From contig NW_021827530.1 of NCBI RefSeq assembly GCF_006345805.1, forward strand, positions 1 through 28,215: DNA of 28,215 bases. The letters run 5' to 3'. The stretch is from Octopus sinensis (Eukaryota). Shown here in pieces: positions 17,492 through 18,540 of the stretch. The notes under the pieces were generated by a model. That model was not told the DNA's origin. It worked only from the letters and a program-made list of their open reading frames with translations, and searched no databases. Positions within the stretch are counted from its first letter, which is position 1; every line of letters starts with the position of its first letter. Made by a program: the position numbers and the translations under genes.

Positions 17492-18050
17492 GTGAAAGCG
17501 ATAGAATACATACTATCTGCTCCAATTATGAAGAAAAGAGAGGATAAAACCAAAAAACTGTCTACAGTCTGTCCACTCTATGTGAAAGGCGTCTCCGAAA
17601 AGATACAAATTTATGCGGCCCATAATGACATCAGGACAGTATTCAAGAGTAATACAGCACTTCGCAAATATCTCCTTCGGGTAAAAATCACCAATAGAAG
17701 AGAATATGACTAAAGACCTCGTGTACTCCATCCCATGCAGCTGTGGTAGGTTATACAAAGGCGAAACATGCCGCCCCCTCAAAATAAGGGTAGATGAACA
17801 TCGCAAAGCTGTGACACGAGGAGATATTGATAAATCGGGTATAGCTGATCATGTATGGAAAAATGGAGACCACTTTCTCCCGTGGGGTGAATTTGAAATA
17901 ATAGACACAGAACCCCACTGGAAAATAGGAAAACGAAAAGAAGCAGCGCATATGCTAGGACACAACAACCTCCTAAGCAGACCGAGTGCAGATATGAGTA
18001 GCATATGGGAACCAGTATTAAGGAATGATGGGAAAATATTAGATTTATAA
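17492..18050 (+). pseudogene. Penelope/Poseidon-type PLE linker and GIY-YIG endonuclease remnant
   Basis: PLYVKGVSEKI...IRTVFKSNTALRKYL (linker), a frameshift near 17706, then LVYSIPCSCGRLYKGETCRPLKIRVDEH...SGIADHVW...H...W...RKEAAH. RT is missing. Confidence 0.9.
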
Positions 18051-18072
18051 GCCCTAAAAATTCACTCCATAT

Positions 18073-18143
18073 GGCGTATGGCGTAGTGGTTAAAAGCGCA
18101 GGCTACTAACCCCAACATTCCAAGTTCGATTACAGGCAGTGAC
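18073..18143 (+). other. tRNA-derived segment (Pol III A/B boxes), not a functional tRNA
   Basis: A-box TGGCGTAGTGG (18079-18089) and B-box-like GTTCGATTAC (18124-18133) at tRNA-like spacing; acceptor and anticodon stems imperfect; followed by (AAT)n. Confidence 0.75.
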
Positions 18144-18144
18144 T

Positions 18145-18184
<40 letters not shown>

Positions 18185-18234
18185 CATCGAAAAAATACCT
18201 TAGGAATGAGAACCCAGGCGCGAAATTTCCCCAA

Positions 18235-18280
18235 GACACCTGATGAAGGCTGGAAGGTATATTAGCCGAAACTTTGTGCT
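18235..18280 (+). ncRNA. Type I minimal hammerhead ribozyme motif (family H2)
   Basis: CAC-CTGATGA-A-GGCTGG-loop-TTAGCC-GAAA-CTTT-GTG: canonical core boxes, 6-bp stem II, CAC/GTG stem I. Stem III reads ACTT rather than palindromic ACGT, so this copy is probably inactive. Confidence 0.7.
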
Positions 18281-18540
18281 AACAACGAACAAAGTGAGGA
18301 CAAATATCCGTCAAATGTAAATAATGTGCATAATTCCTCATCTCTTAAATGTAGAACTGTATCAAAACAATATTTCCTTTTTTATCTGAACTCTTTGTGT
18401 AATATCTAAGTTTTATGAATATTTGATAGATTCTGAAAGAGCTTAAAAATGAACGTTTCTTTTTCTTTTTTGTTCTGCATAATATAGATTGATATCTGTA
18501 CGATCACTTTATCAGCTTCAGTTACATTTAATTAACAAAC

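Follow-up and report, generated by a model that had tools for sequence, protein, structure and literature searches.

The question raised by this locus is whether a tRNA-like segment, a putative promoter for RNA polymerase III (Pol III), found between the endonuclease of a Penelope-like element (PLE) and a hammerhead ribozyme (HHR), belongs to that element, and, if so, whether it provides the templates of the many short copies that resemble short interspersed elements (SINEs). The locus lies in a 28,215-nucleotide stretch of Octopus sinensis DNA (contig NW_021827530.1, positions 1 to 28,215), referred to here as the window. Positions 17505–18362 of the window are a 5'-truncated, decayed PLE. 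The initial annotation had described here the GIY-YIG end of an open reading frame (ORF), a tRNA-like segment, an (AAT)n tract, an HHR and a tail, all of which are present where it placed them and are co-oriented. Its start at 17492 needs correction, since homology to other copies begins at about 17505; the element ends at 18362. The tRNA-like head proves to be a fixed part of the terminal repeat of the PLE, and the PLE probably uses it to make short Pol III-initiated templates, which its own protein would copy into SINE-like units.

Could the head have arrived by chance? Among 30 loci chosen solely by an exact 24-mer at the endonuclease end, the head directly follows the endonuclease in 29, the sole exception being an internal deletion, and a chance insertion is therefore excluded. 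The endonuclease–head junction is also bridged by DNA contigs in runs under five organism labels (A to E). A second sample was taken by the head pattern alone (90 loci with 93 matches, drawn from the first ~95 on contig C1; the genome as a whole has 3298). Here the HHR body follows the head in 81 of the 93 matches, and not another SINE body. The remaining 12 heads end in or near the AAT tract; two of them share one insert, in one the body resumes 779 nt further on, and no convincing target-site duplication was seen. As these 12 have no common alternative body, a free SINE made of the head plus (AAT)n is not demonstrated. Thus the two situations that would have spoken for a chance association, PLE copies devoid of the tRNA segment and a head mainly joined to an unrelated SINE body, were not what the samples contained.

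The head itself is only tRNA-like. An Rfam search detected neither the head nor the HHR, and ARAGORN at default settings did not call the head, which at a relaxed threshold was called tRNA-like (11 hits among the loci examined). Comparison with real tRNA genes of the same genome gave z values up to 6.9 and no clear isotype among the six sampled. Three other tRNA-like repeats in the window, with A boxes in their heads (974 (+), 10889 (+) and 23499 (−)), are unrelated to the PLE head (alignment scores 50–54 versus 121). Short resemblances to the element ahead of genuine tRNA genes were due to chance: 30 tRNA loci gave no BLAST match, so there is no sign that the PLE is targeted to tRNA genes. 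One locus, L277, has seven tRNA-Cys-like genes clustered in 3 kb, four of them within a ~156-nt tandem repeat.

What kind of element carries this head? The endonuclease frame of the window has no Pfam match of its own and aligns with the PF01541 GIY-YIG domain of protein P0036 (pairwise E 1e-7). In a longer natural copy, L151, a reverse transcriptase (RT) domain, RVT_1, lies upstream in the same frame as the endonuclease part (E 6.5e-9), and L154 is similar. A search with the endonuclease peptide gave 4844 first-look candidates, with copies extending upstream into the RT. The best long relative, P0002 (847 aa, 52% identity), aligns over the whole element with 44–53% identity along its length, and its residues 18–60 match the product of the HHR and tail region. 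Because this alignment spans the HHR/tail region as the 5' part of the ORF, the 3' unit is a pseudo-long terminal repeat (pLTR). The tail continues directly into the ORF in L193, L196, L313 and 30 tail-to-ORF junction loci. The family order is endonuclease stop, spacer, head, (AAT)n, ATG/HHR and tail, and in tandem copies the tail leads into the next ORF. The HHR sequence is thereby coding, as is reported for the anole PLE (PMC11167929). Features of endonuclease-positive (EN+) PLEs found in the family are RT and GIY-YIG in one frame, a pLTR in tandem, a minimal HHR, and a tail together with inverted 5' partners. The element may be of the Penelope/Poseidon type, which it resembles. A metagenome scan with P0002 yielded no relative. 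In a second PLE group of the same genome, neither an A nor a B box follows the ORF in 29 of 29 loci (head in 0 of 29).

The family HHR has the majority core GAAACGTT, a 5-bp stem I, a 6-bp stem II and a palindromic stem III; the consensus thus restores the core that is altered in the window copy. A 24-mer over the HHR has 5086 exact genome matches versus 0 for a reversed control, which places the motif beyond chance. Pair counts on ten copies gave no covariation in the HHR, as expected of one young family, and a strict pattern finds the core intact in 24 of 181 units. Does the ribozyme define the ends of the copies? Of 81 3' ends, 38 are near 18327 and 36 near 18362, so that 74 fall at two sites ~35 nt apart, ~50 and ~85 nt past the predicted cut; five are at or before the cut and two elsewhere. 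Altogether, 76 of the 81 copies extend 30–85 nt beyond the cut site, and the notion of a ribozyme-terminated unit of ~200 nt has to be given up. When sampling was anchored before the tail instead (98 matches, 95 loci), two of the 98 5' ends lay within 3 nt of the cut, and ends set by HHR cleavage were accordingly rejected on both sides. Two 3' ends 30–40 nt apart are the tail signature of PLEs (PMC11167929, PMC8557442), and for the anole element the tail sites were described as two internal starts of reverse transcription on uncut RNA in vitro (PMC11167929).

It is very improbable, in our view, that a long RNA is instead cut, by an RNase P-like activity at the tRNA-like fold or by the HHR, and that the cut defines the short template. 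The head folds well enough for ARAGORN at the relaxed threshold and the HHR core survives in the 24 units mentioned, but 43 copies retain bases upstream of the first tRNA position (+1), the acceptor stem of the head is poor, and the HHR cut corresponds to neither the 3' nor the 5' ends. Single minimal PLE HHRs, moreover, were reported not to be cleaved in vitro (PMC4209133).

The 5' ends carry most of the argument. Exact genome counts are 505 for the endonuclease end, 3298 for the head, 5086 for the HHR and 9955 for a tail-proximal pattern; with a non-CpG divergence of 4–6% among family copies, we estimate the true number of heads at ~10–20 thousand. A count inside the endonuclease (14 matches) was left out, as its pattern carried changes private to the window copy, and the gradient was measured on loci; a rate calibration by exact matches, which de-duplication had biased, was likewise set aside for the head. 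Some PLE copies are contained in near-identical multi-kb repeats (L161/L168, ~99% over 3–4 kb; also L298, L309, L310 and L314), i.e., they spread by segmental or satellite duplication.

Counting from +1, 44 of the 93 head matches have their 5' limit at −8 to −1 and 28 at +1 to +13, while 21 extend at least 14 nt further. Four of those 72 are endonuclease-linked with a small deletion, which leaves 68 of 93 starting at −8 to +13, ~25 times the truncation rate elsewhere. Head copies therefore mostly lack the ORF and have PLE-type ends (68 stand-alone versus 25 linked). Truncation within the ORF proceeds at 0.0022 per nt (30 copies), a rate from which 1.2 ends would be expected at −8 to −1, where 43 of 65 copies at risk end. 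In the tail-anchored sample, the rates of 5' ends per nt are 0.0035 and 0.0026 in the body, 0.014 in the AAT tract, 0.0019 at +22 to +75 of the head, 0.019 at +1 to +21, 0.064 at −8 to −1, and 0.0025 beyond −18; some rows classed as ending in AAT (e.g., L360, L400) have a head upstream, so that fewer copies are at risk at the head in these figures.

Fourteen copies have plain flanks, and four of them are bounded by direct repeats of 9–11 bp, compared with 0.5% of control pairs; target-site duplications are absent or unclear in the other ten. Since such repeats flank plain short copies, the short units insert as such. PLE-type bases beyond −8 are present in one of 134 stand-alone units, and 20 of the 134 have a perfect fold-back form whose two central bases come from −2/−1. 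From these fold-back forms and the near-absence of bases beyond −8, the template seems to end between −7 and −2. Pol III starts at such upstream positions on tRNA-type promoters.

We therefore favour, with moderate confidence, a model in which an autonomous PLE master gives rise, by way of its fixed tRNA-like head, to short Pol III-initiated templates that the PLE protein copies into SINE-like units. Pol III would start 1–7 nt upstream of +1 in a master copy, and the transcript would read through the HHR and tail into the beginning of the ORF, with the HHR staying uncut. By analogy with the anole element in vitro, the PLE protein would nick AT-rich DNA and prime reverse transcription inside the RNA at the tail sites. 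Synthesis would reach the RNA's 5' end, after which the cDNA may often fold back or join a second, inverted cDNA. Endonuclease-containing copies would derive from longer RNAs started further upstream. As for its origin, a tRNA-plus-(AAT)n retrocopy may have been captured between the stop codon and the ORF start; the inverted relic in the spacer resembles the fold-backs of today's short copies.

Must the accumulation of ends reflect a promoter at all? At the boundary, spacer and head form a hairpin of about −19 to +18 (−12.5 kcal/mol in L144, z −1.9). The head could then be a mere passenger of long PLE RNAs, with the hairpin stalling or snapping back reverse transcription and so creating a truncation hotspot. 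We regard this as unlikely, and several observations nevertheless speak for it or weigh against a Pol III start. In addition to the hairpin itself, 25 of the 68 starts fall within it at +1 to +13, and in 52 of the 93 head copies the sequence immediately before the head is an inverted piece of the element, often head-to-head, which is a known PLE pattern (PMC8557442). The AAT tract, where no promoter is present, also concentrates 5' ends as a second hotspot (31 of 72 copies at risk); ends can therefore accumulate by other means than a promoter. In the family alignment, conservation of the A and B boxes does not exceed that of the head's other positions, and stand-alone and endonuclease-linked units have the same majority sequence. 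Both samples of 5' ends come from the start of contig C1 and have some loci in common. Three RNA-seq runs from a related organism give no direct sign of a Pol III RNA: their reads, in the thousands, fall equally on the two strands and show no peak of starts, and their depth profile resembles the copy profile. No run listed as containing the sequence was recorded as RNA; these three were chosen by species label, are of unknown library strandedness and selection, and may not contain such RNAs. Finally, no copy at the 30 tail-to-ORF junction loci both begins at the head and continues past the first kb of the ORF, and the lack of any run of four T (T4), the Pol III terminator, in the 2747-nt column-majority sense strand is weak as evidence: P is 0.005 by base shuffle, 0.053 by a Markov model and 0.057 by synonymous shuffle, the last blurred by frame errors in two places of that sequence, and G4 is likewise absent.

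What speaks against the hairpin is the exact position of the ends. Snap-back on a long RNA should often include the arm at −9 to −19, but PLE-type sequence is found there in only the one of 134 stand-alone units; among the 98 tail-anchored matches there is a single clear case. The peak rate at −8 to −1 coincides with the hairpin loop and not with the base of the stem, and the plain-flanked copies with target-site duplications start at −7 to −1 too.

Beside the AAT hotspot another pattern was noticed: the HHR body often stands after the (AAT)n end of one same other repeat (L357, L369, L411, L412, L430, L434, L039, L046, L085, L193). The PLE may insert into AAT tails belonging to other elements, with loss of the head through its homology to the target site.

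A further possibility is that the transposition RNA of the autonomous PLE itself comes from Pol III through the captured tRNA promoter, and that the same promoter spawned some ten thousand SINE-like units. On this reading the ~2.7-kb sense strand is free of Pol III terminators throughout, and tandem copies would be transcribed from the head of the upstream repeat. T4 runs number 0.36 per kb in natural open frames versus 2.8 per kb in the PLE group that lacks the head and is itself richer in T, and their scarcity is a weak hint of Pol III transcription. We put this extension forward tentatively and consider it doubtful.

Do the short copies propagate on their own? It is improbable that they form a true self-propagating SINE, in which Pol III transcribes the stand-alone copies and the PLE protein copies these transcripts again. 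Stand-alone copies do keep both boxes (A and B), the HHR and the tail; target-site duplications flank some of them, and there are ~3 of them for every endonuclease-linked head. However, when 89 linked heads (70 bodies) were compared with 134 that stand alone (111 bodies), the majority base was identical in every column save one alignment-ambiguous column of the tail, and no variant was enriched in stand-alone units (223 heads and 181 bodies, a small sample of the family). In three columns (P<0.01) it is the linked copies that are more decayed, the two sets having been picked by different patterns. As there is no variant specific to stand-alone units, the short units seem to stem from the master that also produced the long ones. 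In addition, for the anole PLE a template has to include ORF sequence past the priming sites (PMC11167929); by analogy, stand-alone copies lack such sequence. The short copies are thus likely to represent short transcripts of the autonomous master and not an independent SINE. Of the traits of tRNA SINEs, the unit has the tRNA-like head with A and B boxes at its 5' end and target-site duplications (4 of 14); it has neither a lineage of its own founded by short copies nor a LINE-type 3' end (LINE, long interspersed element) with poly(A) or a simple repeat, its 3' part being the PLE ORF start plus tail, which ends at fixed internal sites. The unit works like a SINE partnered with a PLE. Of the proposed Penelope-mobilised SINE, then, the short head-bearing units with PLE-type ends are upheld, and the separate SINE lineage is not. 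In four loci (L292, L297, L307, L312) a unit is followed by ~100–200 nt of the ORF start and then by a further unit piece; these joins are possible template jumps between short RNAs, like retrozyme-type dimers.

The layout of the window copy is given in Table 1. Its 121-aa stop-to-stop endonuclease frame (stop codon at 18048–18050) is preceded by a frameshift near 17684, the 5' junction of the head is rearranged, the final C of the B box is altered, and the restarted ORF is interrupted by a stop codon. The HHR begins its core with CTGATGA at 18240 and resumes with GAAA at 18268, and the predicted stem II folds; the core reads GAAACTT through a G-to-T change. As stated in the initial annotation, no run of four T occurs between the head and the HHR. 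The first such run, T6 at 18378, is in the flank, and a Pol III RNA from this copy would extend to it (~305 nt).

Table 1. Parts of the PLE copy in the window (window positions)
Feature	Position	Strand	Remarks
5'-truncated start of the copy, PLE ORF between RT and endonuclease	17505–17684	+	frame differs from that of the endonuclease part
GIY-YIG endonuclease end of the PLE ORF, stop codon included	17685–18050	+	frame translation and alignment
Spacer	18051–18072	+	in the family the initial ~18 nt of the head recur in it, inverted and degenerate, giving a hairpin; partly deleted here
tRNA-like head	18073–18146	+	A box 18079–18089 intact; B box 18124–18132 with one base changed
(AAT/AAC)n tract, variable length	18147–18185	+	second hotspot, both for 5' ends and for other elements inserting
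PLE body of the terminal repeat	18186–18362	+	a short leader precedes the ATG (18206) and the initial ~50 codons of the PLE ORF
Minimal type I HHR	18235–18280	+	stem I 18235–18239/18276–18280; stem II 18248–18267
HHR core	18240–18246 and 18268–18271	+	predicted cut after 18275; core changed at 18273 in the window copy
PLE tail, ~35 nt, between the two preferred 3' ends of the family	18328–18362	+	3'-end counts; tail concept from PMC8557442 and PMC11167929

Elsewhere in the window, the fragment of the second PLE group that served as control (5851–6432, −) has a weak GIY-YIG match and 11218 first-look candidates. This group has a hammerhead-like motif of its own downstream (~5401–5421, −), with U for C at the first core position in several relatives. 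Two frames at 9415–10242 (−) resemble the C-terminal part of a LINE ORF and have no Pfam match. A full-length U6 small nuclear RNA match (19222–19327, −; Rfam RF00026, 106.5 bits), in which a variant 5' stem still pairs, has (AT)n upstream of it and, downstream, a T run and a tRNA-headed repeat; it is either a gene or a retrocopy. Around it are the arms of an inverted repeat (18793–18969 and 20042–20218; 177 nt, 85% complementary, 1072 nt apart), which look like DNA transposon ends.

How does this element compare with known systems? Octopus tRNA-derived SINE families OK, OR1 and OR2 were reportedly described by Ohshima and Okada in 1994. Such SINEs share with our unit the tRNA head with A and B boxes, a length of ~290 nt and a 3' part in common with an autonomous retroelement. 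They differ in that the partner here is a PLE and not a LINE, and that the unit has no 3' poly(A) or repeat and no separate lineage; OR2 is a CORE SINE (PMC4758252). Canonical EN+ PLEs with pLTR hammerheads (PMC4209133, PMC8557442, PMC11167929) have, like the octopus PLE, an ORF with RT followed by GIY-YIG, a minimal type I HHR that overlaps with where the ORF begins, a pair of 3' ends 30–40 nt apart, 5' truncation, and inverted and tandem insertions. Unlike them, the octopus PLE has a tRNA-like head with A and B boxes and (AAT)n fixed in its terminal repeat; the promoter of Drosophila Penelope is described as TATA-less, LINE-like and internal (PMC2377424). Schistosome Sm-alpha and Sj-alpha (PMC2770079, PMC6765202, PMC4918200) likewise have a tRNA-derived head followed by a hammerhead, exceed 10,000 copies and are apparently transcribed by Pol III. 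Their HHRs are canonical and active, the often tandem arrays are cut to monomers, and the parts of those papers available name no autonomous element sharing the unit, whereas the octopus unit is the terminal repeat of an ORF-bearing PLE and its copies have their ends at the tail sites and not where the HHR would cut.

Metazoan non-LTR retrozymes (LTR, long terminal repeat; PMC7229834; bioRxiv 10.64898/2026.07.22.740005) are also short HHR units related to pLTRs, with a proposed use of PLE enzymes. They are tandem repeats processed to circular RNA, in contrast to the dispersed, single or head-to-head octopus units with a tRNA head; the words tRNA, Pol III and promoter are absent from the available text of the preprint. 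Head-to-tail HHR tandems of the retrozyme or Sm-alpha type are not the rule in octopus, where units are mostly single or head-to-head and a few joins of unit, ORF piece and unit were seen (L292, L307). The TRIMp3 elements Helenus, Ajax and Cassandra (PMC10886601) likewise have a Pol III promoter derived from a small RNA inside a retrotransposon terminal repeat. They are non-autonomous LTR elements, and their author argues that the autonomous partners employ Pol II and that the LTR is not common to both (PMC10886601); here the head sits in the autonomous PLE itself, with RT, GIY-YIG and PLE-type ends (no separate search for a primer-binding site or polypurine tract was made). A full-text literature search, judged by titles, abstract openings and selected passages, found no PLE with a tRNA head in its pLTR; schistosome Sm-alpha, retrozymes and TRIMp3 come nearest. 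The main text of an octopus repeat annotation (PMC13282606) contains neither "hammerhead" nor "ribozyme". The unit may be catalogued as a tRNA SINE in Repbase, Dfam or SINEBase.

Pol III promoters in terminal repeats have so far been described for non-autonomous LTR elements; here a tRNA-like head sits in the repeat of an autonomous PLE, most of whose head-bearing insertions look like SINEs. The octopus copies provide a natural read-out of the limits of PLE template RNA and evidence that uncut RNA is the template in vivo, in agreement with the in vitro work. They also carry a warning for annotation, as such units would be filed as tRNA SINEs, separate from their PLE. SINEs are defined as partners of LINEs. 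If the PLE RNA is indeed made by Pol III, this would be a case of a SINE-like element with a PLE rather than a LINE as partner, and a snapshot of how tRNA-plus-hammerhead elements such as Sm-alpha arise. The family offers a testable route from PLE pLTRs to tRNA-plus-hammerhead repeats.
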